64,000 bases of DNA from Chitinophagales bacterium (lineage in GTDB: Bacteria; Bacteroidota; Bacteroidia; Chitinophagales; JADIYW01): the NCBI GenBank assembly GCA_019694955.1, contig JAIBAX010000001.1:109852-173851 (forward strand), written 5' to 3'. Made by a program: the position numbers and the translations under genes. The notes beneath the pieces were generated by a model that saw only the letters and a list, made by a program, of their open reading frames with translations, was not told the origin of the DNA and made no database searches. This document shows, piece after piece, positions 1-43,700 of this stretch; position 1 is the first letter of the stretch; every line of letters starts with the position of its first letter.

Positions 1-2478
1 TTGGCAGTTTTGATGAGTAAAAATGTGGATGGGCAAGAGTTGCGATTATATGAAAGAGATAATGTAAGTGAAGATTCCAGAACAAATAGACATGTTAATT
101 ATTCTTTATATAAGCCAACCTTTACAGACTTGGATGGTGATGGAGACTTTGATGTGTTTGTTTTATATAACACCTATCCTTATGAATATGGTACAACTTG
201 TATCTATTTTGAAAATAAAGGAAATCGTGAATTTCCAAATCTTCAGATCATAAATTTTCACGAGACAGATAGTATTTTGATTAAATCAAATTTAGTTAAA
301 ATTAGTGGGTTTGGCACCTACGATATGGGTGCGAATAATGATTACTCTCGTTACAGAGAGTTTCTTGACATTGATGGAGATGAAGATTTTGATCTCATTG
401 ATCAAATAACGGAAGTAATTTATGAACCCAATTATAAAATGAGTCCTTATACATATATTTATGAAAACATGGGAAATAAAATGACACCATTGTTTGATAC
501 AATACCGATGTTTAAATTCTCTGGATATTTCTCTATACTTGATATTAATTCTGATGGGAATTTTGATTTATATAATTTAAGTCATATTGATGATTATTAT
601 GTTATTGATACATGCTTGGTTTATCATTTAAATAAAGGGAGTTTTATAATACCTGAGTTTGATTTTTTGATGCCTGACACGGTCGAATTAATAGACTATA
701 ATAAAGATATCATTGATTTAAAATTAGCTGATATGGATGGTGATGGTATAGATGATTTGGTAATATTTTCAAAAGAAAAACCTTATTTAGACCCTCGTTA
801 TGGTGAATATCTCTATTATCATATTTATGGAACTTATTTTAAGAGAAATAATAATGAAGTATTGGAATTTGAAAACGGAGGAGAAGCTTTCTTTGATAGT
901 GAATTGGTAATGGAAGGTCATTATGGTTGGGTCGAAATTCTTCAACAAGATATTGACTACGATGGAGATTTTGATATTCATATTGGCGGTATTCATCCAA
1001 GTCAAAGCCATTTTACTTATTTTAATTGTGGGTTATTTTTTAACACGGGAATGTTACTTAATAGTATTGAAGGAAATGTTGATATAGATCTTGACGGAGA
1101 TGGAATTTTCACACAAGATGAAAATTATAACCATAGAGAAATTACTAAATTTGATTATTATGGTGAACCCTATACAGAAACAATTTATTTCCACAAACTA
1201 ACAAATCATCCCATTGTAGCAGAAGGGGTCGACTATATCTTTCCAATAGATGAAATGGGAGAATTTACTGTTTTTACCTCCGACGGCACACAAAAAATAT
1301 ACCCAAAACCAGTTCCCAATTTTGAGTTTGAACCACCATTTTATACTTATGACTTTCCTGCCGATACCAATATATCCGTTGCAAATGTTCAATTTGTGAT
1401 GAAACCGATAACAGGTAGGTATGATGTAGCTGTAGATTTTTCCGGCTTAGCAACACGCCCCGGTTTTGAAACGAAGCAGTATTTGTATTATAAAAACTTA
1501 GCAGGAAATCCTACAAACGGCACACTTTCCTATACACCGCCAGCAGAACTCACGATTCTTAGCACACAACCCAATTTTGACAGAACTGAGTCTGGTGTAT
1601 ATTATTGGGATATTGAAGATTTACAAGCTTTAGAATCAGAACAGGTAGAAGTGAACTTACAAGTAGATGTCAATGCGGTTTTAAACACACCTATTCAGTC
1701 AGTTGTGAGTTTTGAACTTACCAACGGCACAGATTTTAATCCTTTAAACAATACTGATACATTATTTGGAAGGATTACAGGTTCTTTTGACCCGAATGAC
1801 AAATTGGTGAGTCCGTCCGGATTGGATGGCGGTTTGACGGCCGTTACCGACCGGTCGTTTGAATACACCATTCGTTTTCAAAACATGGGCAATGATACTG
1901 CTTTTACGGTGATTATCACGGACACCTTAGATACAGATTTCAACCTTTCTTCTTTCGAGATGGTATGCTCTTCTCACAATTATGAATTGAGTGTAAGAAA
2001 TAATAATGTACTGATATGGAAGTTTAGGAATATTCTGCTGCCACCAAGTAACACGAATCTAACGGGCAGCCAAGGTTTTGTGAAGTATCGATTTACGCCT
2101 AAAGAAGATGCCGATATCGGCACAATTTTCACCAATAAAGCGGATATTTATTTCGACTATAATACACCAGTTGTAACCAACGAGACGAGAAATATATTTG
2201 GCGTTATTAGCGGTATTCACAACCACCAACATCAGCAAGATATTGTATCGAAAGCATATCCAAATCCAACGAAAAACAAATTGCTAATCGAGTTTAACAA
2301 TGCAGAAAAGCAAGATGTTATCATCACAATTTACGATATCGAAGGACAACAAATTTTACAGAAAACCATACGAGAAGGATTTTTTAGTTTTGATGTACAC
2401 AATCTTTCAGCAGGCACATATTTATATACAATTGAAAGCGTCAGTGCATTTGGAAAGGGGAAATTTATAAAAGAATAA
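1..2478 (+). CDS. FG-GAP/VCBS-repeat adhesin-like secreted protein with T9SS C-terminal sorting domain (5' truncated by window edge)
   Basis: ORF is open to position 1. It has repeated DxDGDGDxD calcium-binding-like motifs (DLDGDGDFD, DIDGDEDFD, DMDGDGIDD). A beta-sandwich region carries GSFDPNDK and RFQNMGNDTAF. The C-terminus (YPNPTKNKLLIEF...IYDIEGQ...LSAGTYLY...GKFIKE) fits the T9SS type A sorting domain. Paralog of 35746..38340. Confidence 0.8.
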   Translation: MAVLMSKNVDGQELRLYERDNVSEDSRTNRHVNYSLYKPTFTDLDGDGDFDVFVLYNTYPYEYGTTCIYFENKGNREFPNLQIINFHETDSILIKSNLVKISGFGTYDMGANNDYSRYREFLDIDGDEDFDLIDQITEVIYEPNYKMSPYTYIYENMGNKMTPLFDTIPMFKFSGYFSILDINSDGNFDLYNLSHIDDYYVIDTCLVYHLNKGSFIIPEFDFLMPDTVELIDYNKDIIDLKLADMDGDGIDDLVIFSKEKPYLDPRYGEYLYYHIYGTYFKRNNNEVLEFENGGEAFFDSELVMEGHYGWVEILQQDIDYDGDFDIHIGGIHPSQSHFTYFNCGLFFNTGMLLNSIEGNVDIDLDGDGIFTQDENYNHREITKFDYYGEPYTETIYFHKLTNHPIVAEGVDYIFPIDEMGEFTVFTSDGTQKIYPKPVPNFEFEPPFYTYDFPADTNISVANVQFVMKPITGRYDVAVDFSGLATRPGFETKQYLYYKNLAGNPTNGTLSYTPPAELTILSTQPNFDRTESGVYYWDIEDLQALESEQVEVNLQVDVNAVLNTPIQSVVSFELTNGTDFNPLNNTDTLFGRITGSFDPNDKLVSPSGLDGGLTAVTDRSFEYTIRFQNMGNDTAFTVIITDTLDTDFNLSSFEMVCSSHNYELSVRNNNVLIWKFRNILLPPSNTNLTGSQGFVKYRFTPKEDADIGTIFTNKADIYFDYNTPVVTNETRNIFGVISGIHNHQHQQDIVSKAYPNPTKNKLLIEFNNAEKQDVIITIYDIEGQQILQKTIREGFFSFDVHNLSAGTYLYTIESVSAFGKGKFIKE

Positions 2479-2538
2479 AGCTTGTCTGATTGCAATGAAG
2501 ACTTTGTTAAAGTAATCTCGTAGCGTGGATGGAGTGTC

Positions 2539-2560
2539 TTTGTGATTAATTTATCACAAA
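2539..2560. promoter_or_regulatory. perfect 22-bp palindrome TTTGTGAT-N6-ATCACAAA (candidate operator) overlapping the promoter of the Crp/Fnr gene
   Basis: Read directly: tttgtgat taattt atcacaaa, with 8-bp arms that are exact reverse complements. The half-site TGTGA resembles the CRP-type half-site but with different spacing. The left arm contains a TTTG that could be the -33 element. Confidence 0.5.
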
Positions 2561-2564
2561 CACC

Positions 2565-2572
2565 TATCTTTG
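2565..2572 (+). promoter_or_regulatory. Bacteroidota -7 promoter box TATCTTTG
   Basis: Matches the TAnnTTTG consensus and ends 6 nt before ATG 2578, which implies a very short or absent leader. Confidence 0.45.
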
Positions 2573-2577
2573 TACCC

Positions 2578-3201
2578 ATGGAAATGTTGAATCAGATCAC
2601 CGAGTTTAAATCTTCTCCGCAACTTCGCGAAATGCTCTTTGCGAATAGTATCCACAAAACCTTTAAGTCTGGAGATGTCATTTTAAATGAAAATGCCTAC
2701 ATTCGAGCCATACCCATTGTAGTGAAGGGAAGTATTAGAGTTATCAGAACGGAAGATGATGGCAGAGAAATTTTGCTATATTATATAAAAGCAGGGGAGA
2801 GTTGCATTATGTCTTTTTTAGGTGGTATGCATCAAGAAACCAGCAAAGTGAAAGCCGAAGTGGAAGAAGATGCCGAGATACTCTTTTTACCCATAGAAAA
2901 AGTATCGCTGTTTATCAAAGAGTATCCGCAATGGTTGGATTACATATTCAGGTTGTATCATAAGAGATTCGAAGAATTGCTTGAAGTAGTCAATGCCGTG
3001 GCCTTTAAAAAGGTAGATGAGCGCCTTTTATCCTTGTTATCCAAGAAGTCAACACTCACAAATAGTAACACTATTTCTATTACTCATGAACAACTTGCCA
3101 ATGAATTGGGAACAGCACGGGTAGTAGTTTCGCGATTGCTGAAACAATTGGAAGATTCCGGTAAAGTGAAACTTGGGAGAAATAAAATCATTCTTGTGTA
3201 A
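2578..3201 (+). CDS. Crp/Fnr family transcriptional regulator
   Basis: cNMP-binding-like beta-roll (GDVILNE...IKAGESCIMSF) followed by a C-terminal HTH (ITHEQLANELGTARVVVSRLLKQLEDSG). ATG 2578 is preferred over the GTG at 2542, because a TATCTTTG -7 box (2565-2572) and a 22-bp palindrome lie inside the longer ORF. Confidence 0.85.
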   Translation: MEMLNQITEFKSSPQLREMLFANSIHKTFKSGDVILNENAYIRAIPIVVKGSIRVIRTEDDGREILLYYIKAGESCIMSFLGGMHQETSKVKAEVEEDAEILFLPIEKVSLFIKEYPQWLDYIFRLYHKRFEELLEVVNAVAFKKVDERLLSLLSKKSTLTNSNTISITHEQLANELGTARVVVSRLLKQLEDSGKVKLGRNKIILV

Positions 3202-3211
3202 CATTAGTAGC
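3197..3211 (+). promoter_or_regulatory. 15-nt motif TGTAACATTAGTAGC, copy 1 (candidate activator site upstream of tauE-like gene)
   Basis: Exact 15-mer shared with 4079-4093. It starts 37 nt upstream of a -7-like box (CACTTTTG, 3234-3241). Confidence 0.45.
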
Positions 3212-3256
3212 ATTAAATGATAAATAATCAACTCACTTTTGTACCTAAATGGAGAG

Positions 3257-4057
3257 ATGGAGTTATTAGGTTATTTTTGTTCAATATTGATTGGTGTTGC
3301 ATTGGGACTTATTGGTGGGGGTGGAAGTATACTTACCGTGCCCGTTTTAGTATATTTGTTTGGTATTGAACCTGTTGTAGCAACAGCCTATTCGCTTTTT
3401 ATTGTTGGGTTAACCAGCGCAGTGGGTTCAGTAACATATTTTCAGAAGCGTTTGGTCAATATTCGAACCGCCATTATTTTTGGAATTCCCTCTATTGTTG
3501 CTGTGTTCTTAACACGTGCATTTATTGTTCCTGCCATTCCCGAAGAGGTCTTTAGCAGTGCTTCTTTTGTAATGACAAAAGGAATGTTAATGATGATATT
3601 ATTCGCCATACTCATGGTGGCCGCATCCTATAGCATGATAAAGAAAAATCAACCCGTGATGAAGGAAGTGGAAGAACCGCAAAAGTTTAACTATCCACTT
3701 ATTCTCATAGAAGGTGTCGTGGTAGGTGTCTTAACCGGATTAGTAGGTGCAGGAGGCGGATTCTTAATCATTCCTGCTTTAGTAGTACTCAGTAAACTGC
3801 CGATGAAAGAGGCTGTAGGAACATCATTGGTCATCATCGCCGCAAAATCGCTGATTGGTTTTTTTGCGGAAGCAGGTGGCGACCATATCAATTGGTTGTT
3901 CCTATTTAAAGTATCCCTATTTGCAATCGTCGGAATATTCATTGGCGCTACGCTTTCCAAAAGAATCAATGGCGAAAAGTTAAAACCTGCATTTGGTTGG
4001 TTTGTGCTGGTCATGGGTGTTTATATTTTGGTAAAAGAACTCATCCTTTCAAAATAA
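3257..4057 (+). CDS. TauE/SafE family sulfite/anion exporter (DUF81)
   Basis: Polytopic membrane protein with duplicated GxGGGxxxxP motifs (GLIGGGGSILTVPVL and LVGAGGGFLIIPAL) typical of TauE/SafE. ATG 3257 chosen downstream of a -7-like box. Confidence 0.85.
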   Translation: MELLGYFCSILIGVALGLIGGGGSILTVPVLVYLFGIEPVVATAYSLFIVGLTSAVGSVTYFQKRLVNIRTAIIFGIPSIVAVFLTRAFIVPAIPEEVFSSASFVMTKGMLMMILFAILMVAASYSMIKKNQPVMKEVEEPQKFNYPLILIEGVVVGVLTGLVGAGGGFLIIPALVVLSKLPMKEAVGTSLVIIAAKSLIGFFAEAGGDHINWLFLFKVSLFAIVGIFIGATLSKRINGEKLKPAFGWFVLVMGVYILVKELILSK

Positions 4058-4078
4058 AATTATACCAAAGTAATGTTA

Positions 4079-4093
4079 TGTAACATTAGTAGC
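4079..4093 (+). promoter_or_regulatory. 15-nt motif TGTAACATTAGTAGC, copy 2 (upstream of CstB-like gene)
   Basis: Exact copy of the 15-mer at 3197-3211. It starts 37 nt upstream of the -7 box TAATTTTG (4116-4123), the same spacing as copy 1. Confidence 0.45.
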
Positions 4094-4115
4094 TGTATAG
4101 CCTGAATGAGGGCTT

Positions 4116-4123
4116 TAATTTTG
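4116..4123 (+). promoter_or_regulatory. -7 promoter box TAATTTTG
   Basis: Matches TAnnTTTG, 19 nt upstream of ATG 4142. No TTTG -33 element at the usual spacing. Confidence 0.4.
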
Positions 4124-4141
4124 ACCGATAAAATTATTTAT

Positions 4142-5557
4142 ATGAAGATAGAACAAATTTATACAGGATGTTTGGCGCAAGGAGCGTATTATATCGTTTC
4201 AGAAGGTGAAGCTGCCATTGTTGACCCACTCAGAGAAATAGCACCTTATATGGCAAGGCTTAAAGAAGACGGTGTCGTATTAAAATACATTTTTGAGACG
4301 CATTTTCATGCCGACTTTGTTTCAGGACACGTAGATTTGGCAAAAGAAACGGGTGCAGCAATTGTTTACGGGCCCACCGCGAAACCGGGATTTGAAGCCA
4401 TCGTTGCGGAGGATAACCAAGTGTTTACGTTGGGAAAGGTGCATATAAAAGTTTTGCATACACCCGGACATACCATGGAGAGTTCTACCTTTTTGTTAAT
4501 AGATGAAAATGGGAAAGACCATTGTATATTTAGTGGGGATACCTTGTTTTTAGGAGATGTTGGCAGACCTGATTTAGCCCAGAAAGCCGCCAATATGACA
4601 CAAGAAGAATTGGCAGGATTATTATATGATAGTTTATATAACAAGATTCTTCCTTTAGCCAATGATATTATTGTCTATCCAGCCCATGGTGCCGGAAGTG
4701 CCTGCGGAAAGAATATGATGAAAGAAACAGTAGATACACTGGGACATCAAAAGGAAATTAACTACGCATTAAACCAACCCGATAAAGCCTCTTTCATTGC
4801 CGCCGTTACGGATGGTCTTACACCACCGCCTGCATATTTTGGTGCAAATGTTGCCATGAATAAGATGGGATATGAAAGTATTAAAGAGGTCATCCACCAT
4901 GGCACAAGGGCTTTAAGCGTGACGGAGTTTGAAGTAGCAGCAGAAGAAACAGAAGCATTGATTATAGATACGAGAGCCGCAGGAGTTTTTGCCGCAGGAT
5001 TTATCCCACAGTCAATAAATATCGGTATTGATGGCGATTTTGCTCCATGGGTAGGTGCCATGGTAATTGATGTAAAACAACCTTTACTTATAGTGGCAGA
5101 TGCCGGTAGAGAAGAAGATGTCGTGATTCGGTTAAGCAGAGTAGGATTCGATCATGTATTGGGATATTTAAGTGGAGGCTTCGACGCATGGAAATCAGCG
5201 GGTAAAGAAATCGATACTGTAAATAGAATTGCACCTTCCACTTTTGAAGCTCAGTTCGAAGCAGCAAATACCCTTGTGATAGATGTTCGCAAAGAAGGGG
5301 AGTATGCGGCAGAGCATATTGAAAATGCTTACAGTAAACCATTGCTTTATATGAATGATTGGATTAAAGACATCGACCCCAAACAACATTTCTTCTTGCA
5401 CTGCGCCGGAGGATATAGAAGTATGATTGCTGCATCAATACTAAAAGCGCGGGGATATCACAATTTTTCCGAAATAAATGGCGGTTTCAATGCGGTAGCC
5501 AATGAAACAAATATTCCAAGAACTAATTTCATTTGTCAATCAAAAGTTTTAAAATAA
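4142..5557 (+). CDS. MBL-fold persulfide-dioxygenase-like domain fused to two rhodanese domains (CstB-like architecture)
   Basis: N-terminal metallo-beta-lactamase motif ETHFHADFVSGH plus HTPGHT. The middle rhodanese-like domain has Asp at the catalytic position (IVADAGRE), so it is probably inactive. The C-terminal rhodanese has an intact active-site loop (HCAGGYRS). ATG 4142 gives the typical MKIEQIY N-terminus. Confidence 0.85.
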   Translation: MKIEQIYTGCLAQGAYYIVSEGEAAIVDPLREIAPYMARLKEDGVVLKYIFETHFHADFVSGHVDLAKETGAAIVYGPTAKPGFEAIVAEDNQVFTLGKVHIKVLHTPGHTMESSTFLLIDENGKDHCIFSGDTLFLGDVGRPDLAQKAANMTQEELAGLLYDSLYNKILPLANDIIVYPAHGAGSACGKNMMKETVDTLGHQKEINYALNQPDKASFIAAVTDGLTPPPAYFGANVAMNKMGYESIKEVIHHGTRALSVTEFEVAAEETEALIIDTRAAGVFAAGFIPQSINIGIDGDFAPWVGAMVIDVKQPLLIVADAGREEDVVIRLSRVGFDHVLGYLSGGFDAWKSAGKEIDTVNRIAPSTFEAQFEAANTLVIDVRKEGEYAAEHIENAYSKPLLYMNDWIKDIDPKQHFFLHCAGGYRSMIAASILKARGYHNFSEINGGFNAVANETNIPRTNFICQSKVLK

Positions 5558-5562
5558 TCATT

Positions 5563-5877
5563 ATGTTAGATATGTTAAAAGGGCTTTTTAGCTCAGGACC
5601 AAAAGTAGATATTGCGTCAATAGTTAATGATGGTGCTTTTTTAGTAGACGTAAGAACACCCGGCGAATTTTCTGATGACCATATTAAAGGGTCGGTAAAT
5701 ATTCCATTGGATAGAGTGGGAAGTCAATTAGCGAAGTTTAAGGATAAAAAGCATATTATCGTGTTTTGTAGAAGTGGTGCCAGAAGCAGTCAGGCAAAGG
5801 CAATCCTGGAGAACAATGGCTTTACCAATGTTGTTAATGGTGGCTCATGGTTGAATATGAAACAATATGTAAAATGA
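5563..5877 (+). CDS. single-domain rhodanese sulfurtransferase
   Basis: About 104 aa with the active-site loop FCRSGARS and the flanking rhodanese pattern (VDVRTPGEF...GSVNIP). The ATG lies 6 nt after the upstream stop. Confidence 0.85.
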   Translation: MLDMLKGLFSSGPKVDIASIVNDGAFLVDVRTPGEFSDDHIKGSVNIPLDRVGSQLAKFKDKKHIIVFCRSGARSSQAKAILENNGFTNVVNGGSWLNMKQYVK

Positions 5878-6113
5878 TGTACGCCCTCACTCATCATTGG
5901 CATTTCTTACGCATAATTCGGTTGTTATTAGGGGTGTTTATAGCTGTCGAAGGAGGACGTTCTGGAGATTATCTAATGTTGACCTTGGGATTGTTCTTTT
6001 CAGGTATGGCGTTATTTAACAAGGGTTGTTGTGCTTCGGGTGCTTGTAATCATCAGATAGAAAATAAAGAAAGGGAAAAAGAAATCGTGTATGAAGAAGT
6101 TCATAATAAGTAA
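5874..6113 (+). CDS. small membrane protein, DUF2892/YgaP-TM-like, with GCCASGAC motif
   Basis: Two predicted TM helices followed by KGCCASGACN. The ATG overlaps the upstream TGA (ATGA). The family name is from memory and unverified. Confidence 0.6.
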   Translation: MMYALTHHWHFLRIIRLLLGVFIAVEGGRSGDYLMLTLGLFFSGMALFNKGCCASGACNHQIENKEREKEIVYEEVHNK

Positions 6114-6303
6114 AATATGGTATATTATAGGGGGACTGGTGGGCGCCCTCGCAGGATATCTCTACTGGAGATATGTGGGGTGCGCATCAGGCACCTGTAT
6201 GATTACCTCAAGACCTATAAATAGCACGCTTTACGGAATGGTGATGGGTAGCTTATTGTTTAGTATGCTGGAAAGAAAAGAGATTAGTACCAAAAATAAA
6301 TAG
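6091..6303 (+). CDS. small membrane protein (DUF6132-like) with GCASGTC motif
   Basis: 70 aa with two TM helices and the motif YVGCASGTCMITS between them. It overlaps the upstream gene by 23 nt. The family name is from memory. Confidence 0.55.
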   Translation: MKKFIISKIWYIIGGLVGALAGYLYWRYVGCASGTCMITSRPINSTLYGMVMGSLLFSMLERKEISTKNK

Positions 6304-6306
6304 GAA

Positions 6307-6603
6307 ATGAAAAGTTTCAACGAACTCATACAATCAAATAAACCAGTATTGGTAGATTTTTTTGCTGAATGGTGTGGTCCCTGTAAAATGATGGCACCCA
6401 TCTTGAAAGAAGTGAAAGAAAAACTGGACGACACCGTAAGTATCATTAAGGTGGATGTGGATAAAAATCCACAGGTGGCTGCCGTGTACCAAATACAAGG
6501 CGTTCCAACGATGATACTGTTTAAAGAAGGTAAAATATTGTGGCGAAAGAGTGGCGTCATGCCGGCTTCGGAATTGGTTCAGATAATACAACAAAATCAA
6601 TAG
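6307..6603 (+). CDS. trxA: thioredoxin
   Basis: 98 aa with the canonical WCGPCK active site and VDVDKNP...GVPT thioredoxin fold motifs. Confidence 0.9.
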   Translation: MKSFNELIQSNKPVLVDFFAEWCGPCKMMAPILKEVKEKLDDTVSIIKVDVDKNPQVAAVYQIQGVPTMILFKEGKILWRKSGVMPASELVQIIQQNQ

Positions 6604-6606
6604 GTT

Positions 6607-6936
6607 ATGAGGACTGGAATTTGGATGCTTGTGTTGCTGGTGGTCATTAGTGCTTGCAAACAAAAAGTTACTACTCCCAATGGAAATATTATAATCGATG
6701 TTAGAACTAAGGGAGAATGGGATGCGGATGGCCATGCGGACTGTAGCGAATTGTTCCCGTTGGATGAACTTTCAAATGCAATACCATCTTTGTTAAAATA
6801 TGATACCATTCAAGTAGTTTGCAGAAGCGGAAATAGGGCTGAGACAGCAAAAGAAATGTTGCGTGCAGCCGGCGCACAGTACGTTGAAAATAAAGGTTCT
6901 TGGCAGAATATCATCTGTTCAGAACCAGAGCTGTAA
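6607..6936 (+). CDS. rhodanese-domain lipoprotein
   Basis: Lipoprotein signal peptide (MLVLLVVISAC). Rhodanese pattern IDVRTKGEW with active-site loop VCRSGNRA. Confidence 0.8.
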   Translation: MRTGIWMLVLLVVISACKQKVTTPNGNIIIDVRTKGEWDADGHADCSELFPLDELSNAIPSLLKYDTIQVVCRSGNRAETAKEMLRAAGAQYVENKGSWQNIICSEPEL

Positions 6937-7016
6937 TCCGTAAACTGTGAACAAAAATTGACATCTCTAAATTTACCATAAACTGTGAACCGTGAACATT
7001 CCCAAATTTTACCAAC
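6937..7016 (-). repeat. mosaic intergenic repeat (GTTCACGGTTCACAG / AATTTGGGAATGT / AATTTAGAGATG modules)
   Basis: The reverse complement reads ...aaatttgggaatgttcacggttcacagtttatggtaaatttagagatgtc..., sharing modules with 35309-35360 and 11560-11600. It fills the spacer between the rhodanese and yeeE-like genes. Confidence 0.6.
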
Positions 7017-7029
7017 CTAAAAATACAAT

Positions 7030-7590
7030 ATGGAATTTTTAAAACATCCTTGGCCATGGTATGTGGCAGGACCGCTTATCGGGTTAATAGTACCCATTTT
7101 GCTGATAATTGGCAATAAATCCTTCGGAATATCATCTTCGCTCAGACATGTTTGTGCGGCGTGCTTACCTGCAAATATAGCATTCTTTAAATATGATTGG
7201 AAGAAAGAAATATGGAACCTGTTCTTTGTTTTTGGTATTGCCATGGGTGGAATGTTGGCTATGTTATTGCTGTCAAATCCGGCAGATATTATTGTTAATA
7301 AGAAACTTGCAGCTGAAATGTCCACATATGGAATTACTGATTTTAGCAGCTTAGTCCCAAAAGAAATTATTAACTGGTCGCAATTGTTGTCTTTAAAGGG
7401 ATTTTTGATGATAGTGGTCGGTGGCTTTTTAGTGGGTTTCGGTACACGCTACGCAGGAGGATGTACAAGTGGTCATGCGATCATGGGTATGTCAACACTC
7501 CAATGGCCCTCATTGGTTGCCACTTGTTGTTTCATGATGGGCGGTATTTTGATGGCAAATTTTATTTTACCATTTATTTTAAAATTATAA
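7030..7590 (+). CDS. YeeE/YedE family sulfur-compound transporter subunit
   Basis: Polytopic membrane protein with the conserved GGCTSGH motif (YAGGCTSGHAIMG) of YeeE/YedE proteins. Confidence 0.85.
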   Translation: MEFLKHPWPWYVAGPLIGLIVPILLIIGNKSFGISSSLRHVCAACLPANIAFFKYDWKKEIWNLFFVFGIAMGGMLAMLLLSNPADIIVNKKLAAEMSTYGITDFSSLVPKEIINWSQLLSLKGFLMIVVGGFLVGFGTRYAGGCTSGHAIMGMSTLQWPSLVATCCFMMGGILMANFILPFILKL

Positions 7591-7591
7591 T

Positions 7592-8095
7592 ATGACAGAG
7601 CAGCAACAAGAAACAAACCTTGATTTTGAGGTACGTTCATTAGATACCATTTGCGTAAATGAAAGTAGGTTGGAGCATAAATGGTACCACAACATTAAGT
7701 ACTTAGTAGTGGGTATTTTATTTGGAATTATCTTCGTGAAGGCAGAGATTATTAGTTGGTTTAGAATACAAGAAATGTTTCGGTTTCAGTCGTTTCATAT
7801 GTTTGGTGTAATTGGCAGTGCTGTTTTTGTGGGTGCCATTTCTGTATTTGCCATAAGAAAATTAGGAATAAAAACCATTTATGGTGAAGAAATTGTCTTT
7901 CATCCCAAAACCTTCAATAAGGGTCAGGTTATTGGTGGTGTTCTGTTTGGTTTAGGTTGGGCTATCACAGGTGCATGTCCGGGACCGTTGTTTGCACAAA
8001 TAGGTTCTGGAGCCACCGTTATCATCGTTACCTTATTAAGCGCCATCGCCGGAACGTGGACATACGGCTATTTTAGAGAGAAATTGCCGCATTAA
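7592..8095 (+). CDS. YeeE/YedE family protein (second half-size subunit)
   Basis: Membrane protein with the TGACPGP motif characteristic of the second YeeE/YedE repeat. It starts 1 nt after the upstream stop. Confidence 0.85.
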   Translation: MTEQQQETNLDFEVRSLDTICVNESRLEHKWYHNIKYLVVGILFGIIFVKAEIISWFRIQEMFRFQSFHMFGVIGSAVFVGAISVFAIRKLGIKTIYGEEIVFHPKTFNKGQVIGGVLFGLGWAITGACPGPLFAQIGSGATVIIVTLLSAIAGTWTYGYFREKLPH

Positions 8096-8118
8096 TCAAC
8101 CCTCGAGGTTGATTTTAG
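8094..8118 (+). terminator. hairpin AATCAACC-CTCGA-GGTTGATT followed by TT (weak intrinsic terminator after the yeeE-like pair)
   Basis: 8-bp perfect stem and 5-nt loop overlapping the stop codon. The T-run is only 4 nt including the stem. Confidence 0.45.
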
Positions 8119-8197
8119 AAGGTTGTCACAAAGTAAAAGTACTAATAAAAACCACTAAATGCTGTTTTATCGGGTAATGGTTACGAAATTTTCGAAT

Positions 8198-8238
8198 TCA
8201 ACCCTCGAGGTCGATTTGAAATCAACCCTCGAGGTTGT
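8198..8238. repeat. two further copies of the TCAACCCTCGAGGT(T/C)G hairpin element
   Basis: Copies at 8198-8214 and 8221-8237, with a third at 8096-8112. The last copy encodes the C-terminal residues ...DNLEG and the stop codon of the AI-2E transporter gene. Confidence 0.6.
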
Positions 8239-9256
8239 CCATTTTTCCAAACTCATCAACATAAATCTTTATCAGCAAAATAAACATGGATAATAGAAGG
8301 GGACCAAAAATGATACCCATTAATCCAAACATATTAATACCCACAAAGACGCCAAACAAGGTGATGAGTGGGTGAATATCGGAAAATTGTTTTTGTAGAA
8401 ATATCCTAGCGATATTATCAACAGAACCTATTACCCCGAATCCCCAAATTAAAATGGCAATACCTTGCCAGGTATGCCCTATGGAAAGTTCGTAAAGCCC
8501 TAATGGCAAATATACCAGCATCGCACCTACCATTGGCACAACTGAACAGATGGCAGTCAGTAACCCCAAAAGAAGAATCTGTTCTGCACCAAATATCCAA
8601 TATCCAAACGTACCTACAATGCCTTGAACTATTGCTACGATAGGAATACCTATCGCATTACTATATACCATGCTTTTAACTTCCGTAACTACTTTTTGGT
8701 CATTACTTGCCTTAAATGGAAGATGTTTTTTTACCCATTCTTCCAGTTCCTTGTATTGCGTAAGCAAAAAATATAGGATTAAATACATGAAAAAGAAACT
8801 GCCAATTCCAGACATAGTGCCTTGAATGGTGCTTTGAACAAAACCAATGCCCTTGCTATAAACCATATTCATATCAAGTGCATCCATAATGTCGATTTGC
8901 GTTTTCGACATGATAAACTGGTTGATTTTTTCAAATATTTCATTCAATTTGCTGGTGTCATGAACAAATGGCAATATTTTGTCGATAGCAAAGGATGTCG
9001 TCCAGGCAAAGGGTAATACCAGTAAAACAATAGAAATTATCATTAAAAATAGTGCAGCTAGGGGTTTCTTCCATTTCCATTTTTCTATAAGTTTTTTTGC
9101 TACACCACGCATTATGACATATAAAGTGAGTGCACCTAAAAAACTACTCAATAGGAAATACATTTCTTTGAATAAGGTAATGCCCATAAAGATAAGCACC
9201 GCTAAAAAGGCACCTTGCCGAATAATATTGGGATGGATTTGCTTGTCTGTCATCAT
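8222..9256 (-). CDS. AI-2E family transporter (PerM/UPF0118)
   Basis: 344 aa with about 8 TM helices. The C-terminal region GSVDNIARIFLQKQFSDIHPLITLFGVFVG matches the conserved AI-2E pattern (DN..RP.l....l.hP). Confidence 0.85.
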   Translation of the reverse strand: MMTDKQIHPNIIRQGAFLAVLIFMGITLFKEMYFLLSSFLGALTLYVIMRGVAKKLIEKWKWKKPLAALFLMIISIVLLVLPFAWTTSFAIDKILPFVHDTSKLNEIFEKINQFIMSKTQIDIMDALDMNMVYSKGIGFVQSTIQGTMSGIGSFFFMYLILYFLLTQYKELEEWVKKHLPFKASNDQKVVTEVKSMVYSNAIGIPIVAIVQGIVGTFGYWIFGAEQILLLGLLTAICSVVPMVGAMLVYLPLGLYELSIGHTWQGIAILIWGFGVIGSVDNIARIFLQKQFSDIHPLITLFGVFVGINMFGLMGIIFGPLLLSMFILLIKIYVDEFGKMDNLEG

Positions 9257-9353: not shown

Positions 9354-9707
9354 TTATTTTGATAAGCCAGTTTTGAATCCATAAACACAATGTCGGCAAC
9401 CGTTGTTACAACATTTGCCCTTTAAGTAATGGTACAGTTCAGTGAAGATAAAATGACTCCCTTCTATATAAAAATGCAATCCTTCCTCCAACGGTTCGTT
9501 TTTTTGAGGTAGTGAAAAGTTTCCCGCATACTTGACAAAATCTTCTAAAGCTTCTAGGCATTTATTGCATAAACAATCTGAAAAGTACGTCTTCGTTAAA
9601 AAGTCTCTTGTAGCAGGGGAGAGGACAATTTTGGTACAAGCGCAATTTTCTATGTCATGCACCATACATTCCATGGGTTGACCACACCTACAACAGTTTG
9701 TTTGCAT
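9354..9707 (-). CDS. cysteine-rich CWC-like / DUF5522-like protein
   Basis: N-terminal CCRCGQPMECMVHDIENCAC cluster and C-terminal CCNNGCRHCVYG motif. Domain names are from memory. Confidence 0.65.
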   Translation of the reverse strand: MQTNCCRCGQPMECMVHDIENCACTKIVLSPATRDFLTKTYFSDCLCNKCLEALEDFVKYAGNFSLPQKNEPLEEGLHFYIEGSHFIFTELYHYLKGKCCNNGCRHCVYGFKTGLSK

Positions 9708-42160: not shown

Positions 42161-42652
42161 ATGGCAAAAAGGGACCAATTAGATCGTTTAGATTTACAGA
42201 TTTTGGCATTTTTGATGGAAGACGCAAAAATGCCTTACACAGACATCGCTAAAAAACTCATCATCTCCAGTGGCACAGTTCACGTAAGGATGAAAAAAAT
42301 GGAAGACCTCGGTGTGATTAAAAGTTCAAACTTAAGGATTCAAGAACAGAAACTCGGATATGATATCACTGCCTTCTTAGGAATATATCTTTCCAAGAGT
42401 TCTCACTACAAGTCAGTGGCAAAAGAACTGGAAAAAATACCGGAAGTCATCGAACTTACCTATACAACGGGTATTTATTCTATGTTTGCCAAAGTTGTTT
42501 GTAAGGACACCACACACCTTAGAGATGTTCTGCATGAGAAAATTCAGAACATTGAAGAAATTACACGAACGGAGACATTTATTTCTTTAGAGGAGACATT
42601 TAGCAGGCCAATAAAAATTGATGTGAATGACGCTCCAGAATCTGAGGAGTAG
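42161..42652 (+). CDS. Lrp/AsnC family transcriptional regulator
   Basis: LDRLDLQILAFLMEDAKMPYTDIAKKLIISSGTVHVRMKKM HTH followed by a RAM/ACT-like domain. Confidence 0.85.
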   Translation: MAKRDQLDRLDLQILAFLMEDAKMPYTDIAKKLIISSGTVHVRMKKMEDLGVIKSSNLRIQEQKLGYDITAFLGIYLSKSSHYKSVAKELEKIPEVIELTYTTGIYSMFAKVVCKDTTHLRDVLHEKIQNIEEITRTETFISLEETFSRPIKIDVNDAPESEE

Positions 42653-42701
42653 TTTTTAACATTTTATGCATATTTTATAGAAATCCATCGGATAAGGTTT
42701 T

Positions 42702-42709
42702 TATCTTTG
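42702..42709 (+). promoter_or_regulatory. -7 promoter box TATCTTTG
   Basis: Ends 5 nt before ATG 42714 of the cysteine synthase family gene, which implies a leaderless or near-leaderless mRNA. Confidence 0.45.
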
Positions 42710-42713
42710 CCCC

Positions 42714-43700
42714 ATGCAAATCTATAATAATATTTTAGAAACTATTGGAAATACACCAATAGTAAAGTTGAATAAAATTACCAGTCATATACCTGCAACT
42801 ATTGCAGTTAAAGTAGAATATGGCAATCCTGGCAATTCTATAAAAGATAGGATGGCCGTTAAAATGATAGAAGATGCTGAAAAGGATGGTCGCTTGAAAC
42901 CGGGTGGCACCATCATCGAATGTACTAGCGGGAATACAGGAATGGGACTGGCAATAGCGGCATGTGTGAAGGGTTATAAGTGCATATTTACCTCTACTGA
43001 AAAGCAATCAAAAGAAAAGTTTGATATGTTACGAGCCTTGGGAGCAGAAGTGCATGTGTGTCCTACTGCTGTAGAACCGGAAGATCCTCGTTCCTATTAT
43101 TCCGTCGCCAAACGACTGGCAAAGGAAATTCCTAATTCAGTGTGGATGAACCAATACGATAACCTTTCCAACAGACAGGCACATTATGAGTCTACGGGCC
43201 CAGAAATTTGGCGCCAGACCGAAGGGAAAATTACGCATTTTGTCGTTGGAATCGGTACCGGTGGTACCATTACCGGCACGGGTACCTATTTGAAAGAACA
43301 AAATACAAATGTAAAAGTATGGGGTATAGATACCTATGGCTCCATCTTAAAACAATACTATGAGACAGGTACCTACAATCCGGCAGATATCCATAGTTAT
43401 GTTACAGAAGGAATCGGGGAGGACTTTATTCCGCAGAATTACGATTTTAGCATTATAGACTTTATTGAAAAGGTAACAGATAAAGATGCAGCATTGATGC
43501 AGCGGAGACTGGCAAGGGAGGAAGGACTGTTTTTAGGAAATTCCGCCGGTTCGGCCGTGCAAGGCTTGCTGCAATTGCACGAACAATTTCCGTTGACAAA
43601 AGATGATATTGTAGTGATTGTTACACATGATCACGGTTCTAGATATGTCGGCAAATTTTTTAACGATGATTGGATGAGGAGCAAAGGCTATATCGATTAG
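42714..43700 (+). CDS. PLP-dependent cysteine synthase / cystathionine beta-synthase family protein
   Basis: ILETIGNTPIVKL, PGNSIKDR (PLP lysine), TSGNTG and GTGGTITG motifs of the fold-type II CysK/CBS family. There are no C-terminal CBS domains. Confidence 0.85.
   Translation: MQIYNNILETIGNTPIVKLNKITSHIPATIAVKVEYGNPGNSIKDRMAVKMIEDAEKDGRLKPGGTIIECTSGNTGMGLAIAACVKGYKCIFTSTEKQSKEKFDMLRALGAEVHVCPTAVEPEDPRSYYSVAKRLAKEIPNSVWMNQYDNLSNRQAHYESTGPEIWRQTEGKITHFVVGIGTGGTITGTGTYLKEQNTNVKVWGIDTYGSILKQYYETGTYNPADIHSYVTEGIGEDFIPQNYDFSIIDFIEKVTDKDAALMQRRLAREEGLFLGNSAGSAVQGLLQLHEQFPLTKDDIVVIVTHDHGSRYVGKFFNDDWMRSKGYID

Follow-up and report, generated by a model that had tools for sequence, protein, structure and literature searches.

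The subject of this analysis is a cluster of ten genes in a 64-kb stretch of DNA (64,000 nucleotides of contig JAIBAX010000001.1, from a Chitinophagales bacterium; hereafter the window). All ten genes lie on the forward strand; the first encodes a Crp/Fnr-family regulator and the third a fusion of a metallo-β-lactamase (MBL) domain with two rhodanese-type domains, resembling the persulfide dioxygenase (PDO) CstB of Staphylococcus aureus (Table 1). An earlier note on this DNA had listed ten co-directional genes and assigned them to families, and the list of open reading frames (ORFs), Pfam and NCBIfam bear out both the number and the assignments. The same note had treated the cluster as headed by its regulator; this stands insofar as the Crp/Fnr gene comes first, but separate predicted promoters before crp, tauE and cstB speak against a single operon, and the cluster is predicted to have at least three promoters.

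Start codons were revised using homologue lengths and predicted promoters, and five were corrected: crp begins at ATG 2578 rather than GTG 2542, tauE at ATG 3257, cstB at ATG 4142, rhd1 at 5563 and the gene for small protein 1 at 5874 or 5877. Predicted transcription start sites (TSSs) near 3246 and 4128 fix some of these starts, and the revised products agree with the lengths of their homologues (207 amino acids (aa) for crp, 265 for tauE and 470–472 for cstB).

Table 1 Features of the cluster, in window coordinates (position 1 is the first nucleotide of the window).
Feature	Position	Strand	Description
Ten-gene cluster	2578–8095 (listed ORFs from 2542)	+	All ten ORFs present; families upheld by Pfam and NCBIfam
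−7 box of crp promoter	2564..2571	+	TATCTTTG, predicted Bacteroidota sigma-A box
crp	2578..3201	+	Crp/Fnr-family regulator, 207 aa; Pfam cNMP_binding E=6e-11, HTH_Crp_2 E=1.7e-10
Box 1	3197..3211	+	TGTAACATTAGTAGC, core GTnAC-N4-GTnGC; overlaps crp stop TAA 3199–3201; exact match, position weight matrix (PWM) score 26.4
−7 box of PtauE	3234..3241	+	CACTTTTG, predicted; final G 37 nt from box centre; predicted TSS near 3246
tauE	3257..4057	+	TauE/SafE-family membrane protein, 266 aa; Pfam TauE E=7.5e-47; homologues 265 aa
Box 2	4079..4093	+	Identical 15-mer TGTAACATTAGTAGC, then TGTATAG; PWM score 30.8, best in the window
−7 box of PcstB	4116..4123	+	TAATTTTG, predicted; predicted TSS near 4128
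cstB	4142..5557	+	471 aa: MBL/PDO domain, pseudo-rhodanese, rhodanese; Pfam Lactamase_B and two rhodanese stretches
rhd1	5563..5877	+	Cytoplasmic single-domain rhodanese, 104 aa, active site CRSGARS; Pfam Rhodanese E=3.8e-16
Small protein 1	5874..6113	+	Two transmembrane segments, 78–79 aa (88 aa as listed), C-terminal GCCASGAC
Small protein 2	6091..6303	+	DUF6132 membrane protein, 70 aa; Pfam DUF6132 E=5.2e-7
Thioredoxin	6307..6603	+	98 aa, WCGPC; TIGR01068 121 bits (cutoff 96.8)
Lipoprotein rhodanese	6607..6936	+	109 aa; lipobox VISAC; active site CRSGNRA; Pfam rhodanese
yeeA	7030..7590	+	YeeE/YedE half-transporter A, 186 aa, GGCTSGH motif; Pfam Sulf_transp
yeeB	7592..8095	+	YeeE/YedE half-transporter B, 167 aa, GACPG motif; DUF6691; Pfam Sulf_transp
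Three copies of palindromic 17–20-mer	8096..8241	.	TCAACCCTCGAGGTTGA(TTT); directly after yeeB stop, in the convergent gap before the AI-2E gene

A CstB-type persulfide dioxygenase

The product of cstB aligns end to end with S. aureus CstB (PDB 3r2u, E=1.3e-54) and over its full length with the Alicyclobacillus homologue 3tp9 (E=1.9e-64). The metal motifs of PDOs (HxHxD, H, D, H) are present as THFHADF, HTPGHT, FSGDTLF and AHGAG, which align with their S. aureus counterparts; the C-G loop reads GAGSACGK where S. aureus CstB has GAGSPCGK (C201-G202), and HCAGGYRS lines up with HCQSGIRS around the catalytic rhodanese cysteine (C408). The earlier note had proposed a CstB layout with the catalytic cysteine kept in the last domain only, and the end-to-end alignments, together with LHCAGGYRS in the last domain versus IVADAGRE in the middle rhodanese, agree with it on both counts. 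By every sequence criterion the fusion is a CstB-type (type III, multidomain) PDO. In CstB itself, C201 is self-S-sulfonated, the group is passed to persulfidated C408 and thiosulfate is released, and mutating either cysteine abolishes O2 consumption (2026 preprint, PMC12934615). Co-expression of a Zunongwangia type III PDO with sulfide:quinone reductase (SQR) in E. coli yielded thiosulfate (PMC5702731).

No SQR gene accompanies cstB, as had been noted earlier: within the 64-kb window, a screen of ORFs of at least 120 aa for an N-terminal GxGxxG motif flagged one ORF, a saccharopine dehydrogenase. Clusters without sqr appear typical of the phylum, because type III PDOs far outnumber SQRs in Bacteroidetes (194 versus only about 31 in a survey of 185 genomes; PMC5702731).

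Linkage of the regulator to the sulfur genes

The earlier note had named in advance the observation on which its reading would fall, namely a regulator gene that is not syntenic with the sulfur genes in related genomes; we found the two to be syntenic in both directions of search. In the forward scan, a CstB-like query was run against one genome per species and returned more than 590 relatives; 80 loci were kept and the ten window proteins were mapped onto them by tblastn. Genes for TauE, rhodanese, the two small proteins, thioredoxin and the YeeE/YedE pair co-occur with cstB in these loci, and cluster genes recur across Chitinophagales, Sphingobacteriales, Flavobacteriales, Saprospiraceae and a Porphyromonas. 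Of the 80 loci, 16 have a regulator 73–80% identical to that of the window directly upstream of tauE/cstB, and another 17 have a more distant Crp/Fnr gene (31–48%) that belongs to or neighbours the cluster within the sequence fetched; the rest include many short contigs.

In the reverse direction, all three named orthologues of the regulator (from Flavobacterium, Solitalea and Sphingobacterium) adjoin the cluster. A metagenome scan with the regulator as query, in which loci with at least 1.2 kb downstream were counted (n = 62), found sulfur genes nearby in 58, with tauE or cstB the very next gene in 42. The arrangement is seen in well over 100 independent loci, far beyond chance. The earlier statement that the Crp/Fnr protein is the only regulator here also holds, with no ArsR-, CsoR- or Fis-type sensor in the window; likewise, no such sensor was found among ten ORFs sampled beside CstB genes that lack a Crp/Fnr neighbour (these encode helicase, chalcone-isomerase-like, peroxiredoxin, DsbA-like, YHS and similar proteins).

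Operator boxes and promoter phasing

The crp-tauE and tauE-cstB gaps of orthologous loci share the motif TGTAAC-N4-GT(A/G)(A/G)C, often followed by TGTACA, and the motif also stands before yeeA in relatives. Box 1 and Box 2, predicted to be the activator sites of the tauE and cstB promoters, respectively, are the only sites in the window, whether searched by pattern or by weight matrix. Across 1.29 Mb (the window and loci L001–L080) there are 60 matches to the pattern, 59 being on the cluster strand, against about 2 expected by chance from a simple base composition estimate, though this count is partly circular because the pattern was derived from the same set. Nearly all of the 60 lie 44–175 nt upstream of tauE, cstB or yeeA.

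The spacing between box and promoter is free of this circularity. In 55 of the 60 boxes, the TTTG of the −7 box (TAnnTTTG) ends exactly 37 nt past the box centre, and a second set, from metagenomes, shows the same spacing in 92 of its 99 distinct boxes. Class II activation by CRP and FNR takes place, by textbook account, from a site at −41.5. Given that the sigma-A box of Flavobacterium psychrophilum spans −12 to −5 (PMC9723704), a spacing of 37 nt puts the centre of the box core at about −41.5, so that, with TSSs as predicted, the dimer site lies where a class II Crp/Fnr promoter has it. The promoters with boxes that were inspected have no TTTG at −33, the box and TGTACA occupying that place, which fits dependence on a class II activator.

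Since GTnAC is self-complementary save for its middle base, GTnAC-N4-GTnAC is two-fold symmetric, with the 5-4-5 geometry of FNR-type sites. The box overlaps the stop codon of the regulator gene in 55 of 79 metagenome loci, so that gene and first site move as one unit, and a box is present in all 16 genome loci with a close regulator. These observations make a strong circumstantial case that the boxes belong to the adjacent regulator. The regulator gene itself has no GTnAC box upstream; a TAnnTTTG-type box lies a few nucleotides before its ATG, both in the window and in most orthologous loci, so near that the crp mRNA would be leaderless or near-leaderless.

Two other palindromes were considered and rejected as conserved operators. 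One, TTTGTGAT-N6-ATCACAAA (2539–2560), is absent before every orthologous regulator and has 5-6-5 spacing; the other, AAACC-N11-GGTTT, emerged from a palindrome-enrichment screen and proved to be conserved tauE coding sequence (KLKPAFGWF). The former is, in the window, a perfect 8-6-8 palindrome (TTTGTGAT-TAATTT-ATCACAAA) that occurs only once, stands immediately 5′ of the crp −7 box and overlaps the GTG used as the crp start by the database annotation; it could be bound by another, host-specific regulator or have arisen by chance. Sigma-70 promoter and terminator scans remained at background level and do not apply to Bacteroidota promoters.

A conserved cysteine in the effector pocket

Full-length alignments of the regulator to 3dv8, the closest solved Crp/Fnr protein (E=7e-25), and to E. 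coli CRP, with an AlphaFold2 topology in agreement, give it the Crp/Fnr architecture of an N-terminal cNMP-binding-like beta-barrel, a long dimerisation helix and a C-terminal HTH_Crp_2 domain. It has more than 7,900 homologues, the best 120 of which are 78–100% identical; the identical one comes from a Chitinophagales metagenome-assembled genome, and orthologues 78–83% identical occur in Pedobacter, Sphingobacterium, Chitinophaga and Flavobacterium. The named database entries give it no title beyond 'Crp/Fnr family transcriptional regulator'. Against the NCBIfam CRP model it reaches 60 bits (cutoff 266 bits), and two cAMP contacts are lost in the alignment with E. coli CRP (Thr and Met in place of what we take to be Arg82 and Glu72 in CRP numbering; Thr127/Ser128 not counted), from which we infer that the protein is not CRP proper and no longer binds cAMP. 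Nor does it have the N-terminal cysteine cluster by which FNR proper holds its [4Fe-4S] centre, its sole cysteine being Cys76. The recognition helix (T-A-R-V-V-V-S-R) keeps the equivalent of Arg180 and has Val at the position of Glu181.

Cys76 stands at the start of the segment aligned to the cAMP phosphate-binding cassette. Every one of the 29 regulators taken from the loci keeps it, even at 31% identity, and the loop around it (G73-E-S-C-x-M-S-F-L-G-G-x-H85-x-E-T-S-K-V) is essentially invariant among 31 orthologues. His85 is invariant in the close subgroup of regulators; in a distant subgroup Glu replaces it and a CC pair follows six residues after Cys76 (C-x5-CC). As Cys76 is the only candidate residue kept universally, thiol-based sensing of sulfane sulfur at this position is favoured. 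The structural-genomics protein 3dv8 has a cysteine at the Cys76 position and a second one six residues on (MCLLSASC), like the distant subgroup, and the subfamily with a cysteine in its pocket may extend beyond the loci examined.

Accessory genes and mobility

Relatives of the cluster carry additional genes, among them a TPMT-type methyltransferase (23 of 85 sequences searched), a YgaP-like transmembrane protein (20 of 85), OsmC, HMA, DUF2490, DoxDA, a TsdA-like cytochrome c, DsrE, a CoA-disulfide-reductase-rhodanese and a 5′-nucleotidase/metallophosphoesterase protein that reads as SoxB-like. By their predicted families, these accessory genes point to the handling of reduced and partly oxidised sulfur and to stress, not to assimilation. 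In a Sphingobacteriales locus (L047, 16198–20964) the cluster is joined by a TsdA/SoxA-like dihaem cytochrome c, a SoxB-like protein, DsrE and an OprD-like porin, followed by a distant Crp/Fnr gene, which suggests a thiosulfate/tetrathionate branch. In Solitalea lacus (L083, 1935–3641) a Pyr_redox_2/Pyr_redox_dim/rhodanese fusion, similar to CoA-persulfide reductases, lies beside the cluster and the regulator gene is divergent.

The regulator and CstB are 70–85% identical across different Bacteroidota classes, and in six loci (L081, L106, L109, L125, L127 and L164) the regulator gene is immediately preceded by genes for MobC, a relaxase and a coupling protein. The conjugative genes that abut it (positions 1–8919 in L081, and upstream in the other five loci) include ParA, DUF3408, MobC, relaxase, type IV secretion system coupling protein and TraG, so that in those genomes the island is cargo of Bacteroidota integrative and conjugative elements (ICEs). 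A mobilizable plasmid of Spirosoma linguale, pSLIN02 (L165, record positions 104795–109566), carries crp (43% identical)-DUF81-MBL-hypothetical-YeeE-YedE beside a Tn3-family transposase. Its variant box, GTAAC-ATTT-GTCAC, has the same distance to a −7-like box, and in the gap before the MBL gene a classical CRP-type TGTGA-N6-TCACA replaces the GTAAC box. A LysR regulator and a molybdopterin oxidoreductase, possibly sulfite-oxidase-like, lie near this operon. The 64-kb window contains no ICE or transfer genes. Taken together, our data suggest that the cluster has probably spread horizontally in Bacteroidota.

Proposed function and alternative explanations

We propose, with moderate confidence, that the cluster is a detoxification island for reactive sulfur species (RSS), the Bacteroidota counterpart of the cst and BigR operons, and that it is activated by its Crp/Fnr protein through sensing of sulfane sulfur at Cys76. 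The CstB-type enzyme would convert low-molecular-weight or protein persulfides and O2 to thiosulfate, the oxidised product would be exported by TauE (a putative sulfite/thiosulfate exporter), and sulfane sulfur would be shuttled or reduced by the two rhodaneses and thioredoxin. Transport of a sulfur species across the inner membrane would fall to the split YeeE/YedE pair, perhaps together with the two CASGxC membrane proteins. A dedicated Crp/Fnr homodimer, produced from its own promoter, would bind the GTnAC-N4-GTnAC boxes at about −41.5 before tauE and cstB as a class II activator, rather than as a repressor, and would be switched on when sulfane sulfur modifies Cys76 in the remodelled effector pocket.

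Several observations weigh against parts of this proposal. Four of the 62 metagenome regulator loci have no sulfur gene nearby. The box is asymmetric, its right half never being GTTAC, and its assignment to the regulator draws on co-occurrence, geometry and family precedent. In the window, no site above the weight-matrix threshold was found before yeeA, where the 93-nt gap (6934–7014) holds two imperfect direct repeats (AAACTGTGAAC ... AAATTT(T)ACCA). The AlphaFold2 model has a mean predicted local distance difference test (pLDDT) score of 71.6, falling below 50 at residues 77–88 (the sensing loop); poorest in the Cys76–His85 loop, it is of too low quality for the pocket to be analysed. Regulators of the close subgroup have a single cysteine, so that the intramonomer bridging of a dithiol by polysulfide, as in CstR, BigR and SqrR, would be unavailable to them. 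As for transport, YeeE-family proteins are best known as importers, and the import/export logic is uncertain.

The invariant His85 near Cys76 would also fit binding of heme or a metal, and the regulator might thus be a heme or metal sensor that detects H2S or O2, nitric oxide (NO) or redox state, with the role in sulfur detoxification unchanged. CooA and the HcpR of Porphyromonas gingivalis are heme proteins, the ligands in CooA being Cys75 and His77; here neither Cys76 nor His85 varies within the close subgroup and both sit in a pocket-forming loop, the nearest relative by DNA motif (HcpR2) belongs to the NO-responsive FNR-like regulators, and, as CstB needs O2, coupling its expression to O2 or sulfide would make sense. 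We nevertheless regard such a sensor as unlikely: it is Cys76 alone that is universal, His85 giving way to Glu in the distant subgroup, which gains two cysteines, and the protein has neither an FNR-type N-terminal cysteine cluster nor a heme-binding motif recognisable by sequence. The pocket might also bind a small sulfur anion or a persulfide. A second alternative is an island mainly for acquiring thiosulfate or sulfite, in which YeeE/YedE imports thiosulfate, rhodanese and thioredoxin split it to sulfite and sulfide, and the regulator senses sulfur limitation as CysR does. Rhodanese and thioredoxin are indeed a known thiosulfate-reducing pair, the thiosulfate importer TsuA belongs to the YeeE family, and CysR is a named Crp/Fnr subgroup (PMC3590769). 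Yet the best-conserved, central gene is predicted to encode an O2-dependent maker of thiosulfate from persulfide, which runs in the opposite direction; TauE is an exporter family; the accessory genes of relatives fit oxidation and stress handling; and travel with ICEs and plasmids is unlike core assimilation genes. The YeeE/YedE pair also departs from a TsuA/YeeE importer, as the TsuA NCBIfam model reaches 33.8 and 30 bits against a cutoff of 400 bits, the pair is split (186 + 167 aa) instead of forming a single polypeptide of ~330 aa, and Pfam and NCBIfam scans found no gene for a TusA-like (TsuB/YeeD) partner in the cluster. The earlier note had held that the cluster could equally be an assimilation route; we now consider this improbable.

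The boxes, finally, might serve another factor or be an extended promoter element, with the Crp/Fnr protein regulating something else or acting as a repressor. The lack of a clean inverted repeat leaves room for this, as do 13 box-positive loci with no crp gene within the fetched sequence, although many crp-negative loci are incomplete contigs. The overlap of the first box with the regulator stop codon in most loci, which means that gene and site are inherited together, the box in 16 of 16 close-regulator loci, and the 5-4-5 GTnAC skeleton centred at −41.5, both hallmarks of Crp/Fnr class II sites, make it very improbable in our view.

Under the sulfane-sulfur proposal, a further step can be offered only tentatively, as we would put it somewhat below an even chance: the regulator may represent a fourth family of dedicated RSS sensors, after CsoR, ArsR and Fis, namely a class II activator in which the old cAMP pocket is remodelled about one invariant cysteine that is persulfidated or forms a mixed polysulfide with a small thiol and thereby turns on DNA binding, with sensor and operator spread together with the detoxification genes on conjugative elements throughout Bacteroidota.

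Sulfide and polysulfides are common in soils, waters, guts and the oral cavity, all of them habitats rich in Bacteroidota, and within the phylum type III PDOs are nearly universal and SQR is rare (PMC5702731). The proposed circuit is testable, since it specifies one protein, two operator sites, the geometry predicted for activation and a residue that may do the sensing; thousands of database proteins that carry no label beyond 'Crp/Fnr family' represent its regulator. Should the proposed sensing chemistry prove right, the repertoire of RSS sensors would be widened, and a cyclic-nucleotide pocket would be seen to lend itself to reuse in thiol-based sensing. To judge from the link with ICEs and plasmids, tolerance of RSS may be a traded trait in Bacteroidota communities.

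Other genes and features of the locus

Among the smaller genes, rhd1 gives weak PspE/GlpE-like NCBIfam matches under the cutoff, and the lipoprotein rhodanese is rare in relatives (7 of 80 CstB loci). Small protein 1 has no family match and is kept beside the DUF6132 protein in many loci; the latter bears GCASGTC between two hydrophobic segments, and the CASGxC motif is common to both.

The flanks of the cluster are unrelated to it, with a protein secreted by the type IX secretion system encoded upstream and a convergent AI-2E-family transporter gene downstream, and its G+C content is slightly above theirs (0.37–0.42 versus 0.28–0.35). The three copies of TCAACCCTCGAGGTTGA at its 3′ border, with no further copies in the 64-kb window, are probably terminator or REP-like (repetitive extragenic palindromic) hairpins, although they could be an insertion scar. 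An Rfam scan of 2300–8400 gave nothing credible. A gene for a Cys_rich_CWC and DUF5522 protein (9354–9707, reverse strand) lies 1.2 kb downstream of the cluster, and one for a CysK-like pyridoxal phosphate enzyme (42161–43700) lies 34 kb off, preceded by an ORF that is Lrp/AsnC-like by eye; a link to the cluster is evident for neither.

Comparison with known systems

The cst operon of S. aureus shares with this cluster the TauE exporter, the three-domain layout of CstB, its C-G loop and its C-terminal rhodanese cysteine, and has a core copy without sqr on a mobile element (SCCmec), like the mobile copies here. It differs in its regulator, CstR being a dithiol repressor of the CsoR family where a Crp/Fnr protein is found here, and none of the ten proteins matches the CstR, CstA or SQR families. 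Single-domain rhodaneses, thioredoxin, the YeeE/YedE pair and the CASGxC membrane proteins set the present cluster apart from cst in turn.

The BigR/PigS operons of Xylella, Agrobacterium, Acinetobacter and Serratia also combine a PDO-rhodanese enzyme with two YeeE/YedE membrane proteins; the yeeE-yedE-pdo2 operon of A. baumannii is a documented case, and the role proposed for BigR/PigS operons is detoxification of sulfide and RSS. The bigR operon of Xylella and Agrobacterium presumably encodes a TauE/DUF81 protein as well. Blh is a type II, glutathione-dependent PDO whose domains stand in another order. These operons are controlled by an ArsR-family dithiol repressor and are without thioredoxin or CASGxC proteins, whereas Pfam finds no ArsR-family repressor in the present cluster, where the Crp/Fnr protein is the sole regulator. 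For all the likeness in content, the cluster belongs neither with cst nor with the BigR/PigS operons, and its PDO is of type III. The type III PDO of Zunongwangia profunda is of the same enzyme class and from the same phylum, and there the enzyme alone was studied (PMC5702731).

Among regulators, HcpR2 (the hcp regulator of Bacteroides, Clostridia and Thermotogales) has a predicted site, GTAACnnnnGTTAC, whose specificity was tied to loss of Glu181 (PMC1274295). It resembles the protein studied here in belonging to the Crp/Fnr family, in its 5-4-5 operator with a GTAAC half-site and in the loss of Glu181 from the recognition helix, but it is tied to hcp and nitrosative stress, and the right half-site differs, being GT(A/G)(A/G)C here. 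Neither the annotated cluster genes of the window nor those of the four loci for which gene tables were available include an hcp-type gene, and the linkage is to tauE/cstB. CysR of cyanobacteria is plasmid-borne and tied to sulfur metabolism, responds to sulfur starvation, controls acquisition genes and is not known to have a PDO/TauE/YeeE cluster; like the present regulator it belongs to the Crp/Fnr family, and it was not among the close homologues detected. FisR, the sigma-54 activator of pdo-sqr in Cupriavidus and Acinetobacter, is alike as the only established primary RSS sensor that activates, and unlike in protein family and promoter type.

A review of August 2026 names primary RSS sensors from the CsoR, ArsR and Fis families only, in line with the earlier note's statement that the known sulfide- and persulfide-responsive operons are under regulators other than Crp/Fnr, and mentions Crp only as a persulfidation target in Acinetobacter. 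The regulator is absent from a survey of the CRP/FNR superfamily (PMC3590769), and a full-text literature search, with most subscription journals outside its coverage so that a prior description is possible, found no description of regulator or island. That sensor list, the two-way synteny and the lack of a CsoR-, ArsR- or Fis-type sensor support the distinct, uncharacterised regulatory solution that the earlier note had suggested. Set against these systems, the enzymes of the cluster are known parts newly combined, while the regulatory solution (class II activation, through a conserved operator, by a Crp/Fnr protein that has a cysteine in its pocket) looks new.

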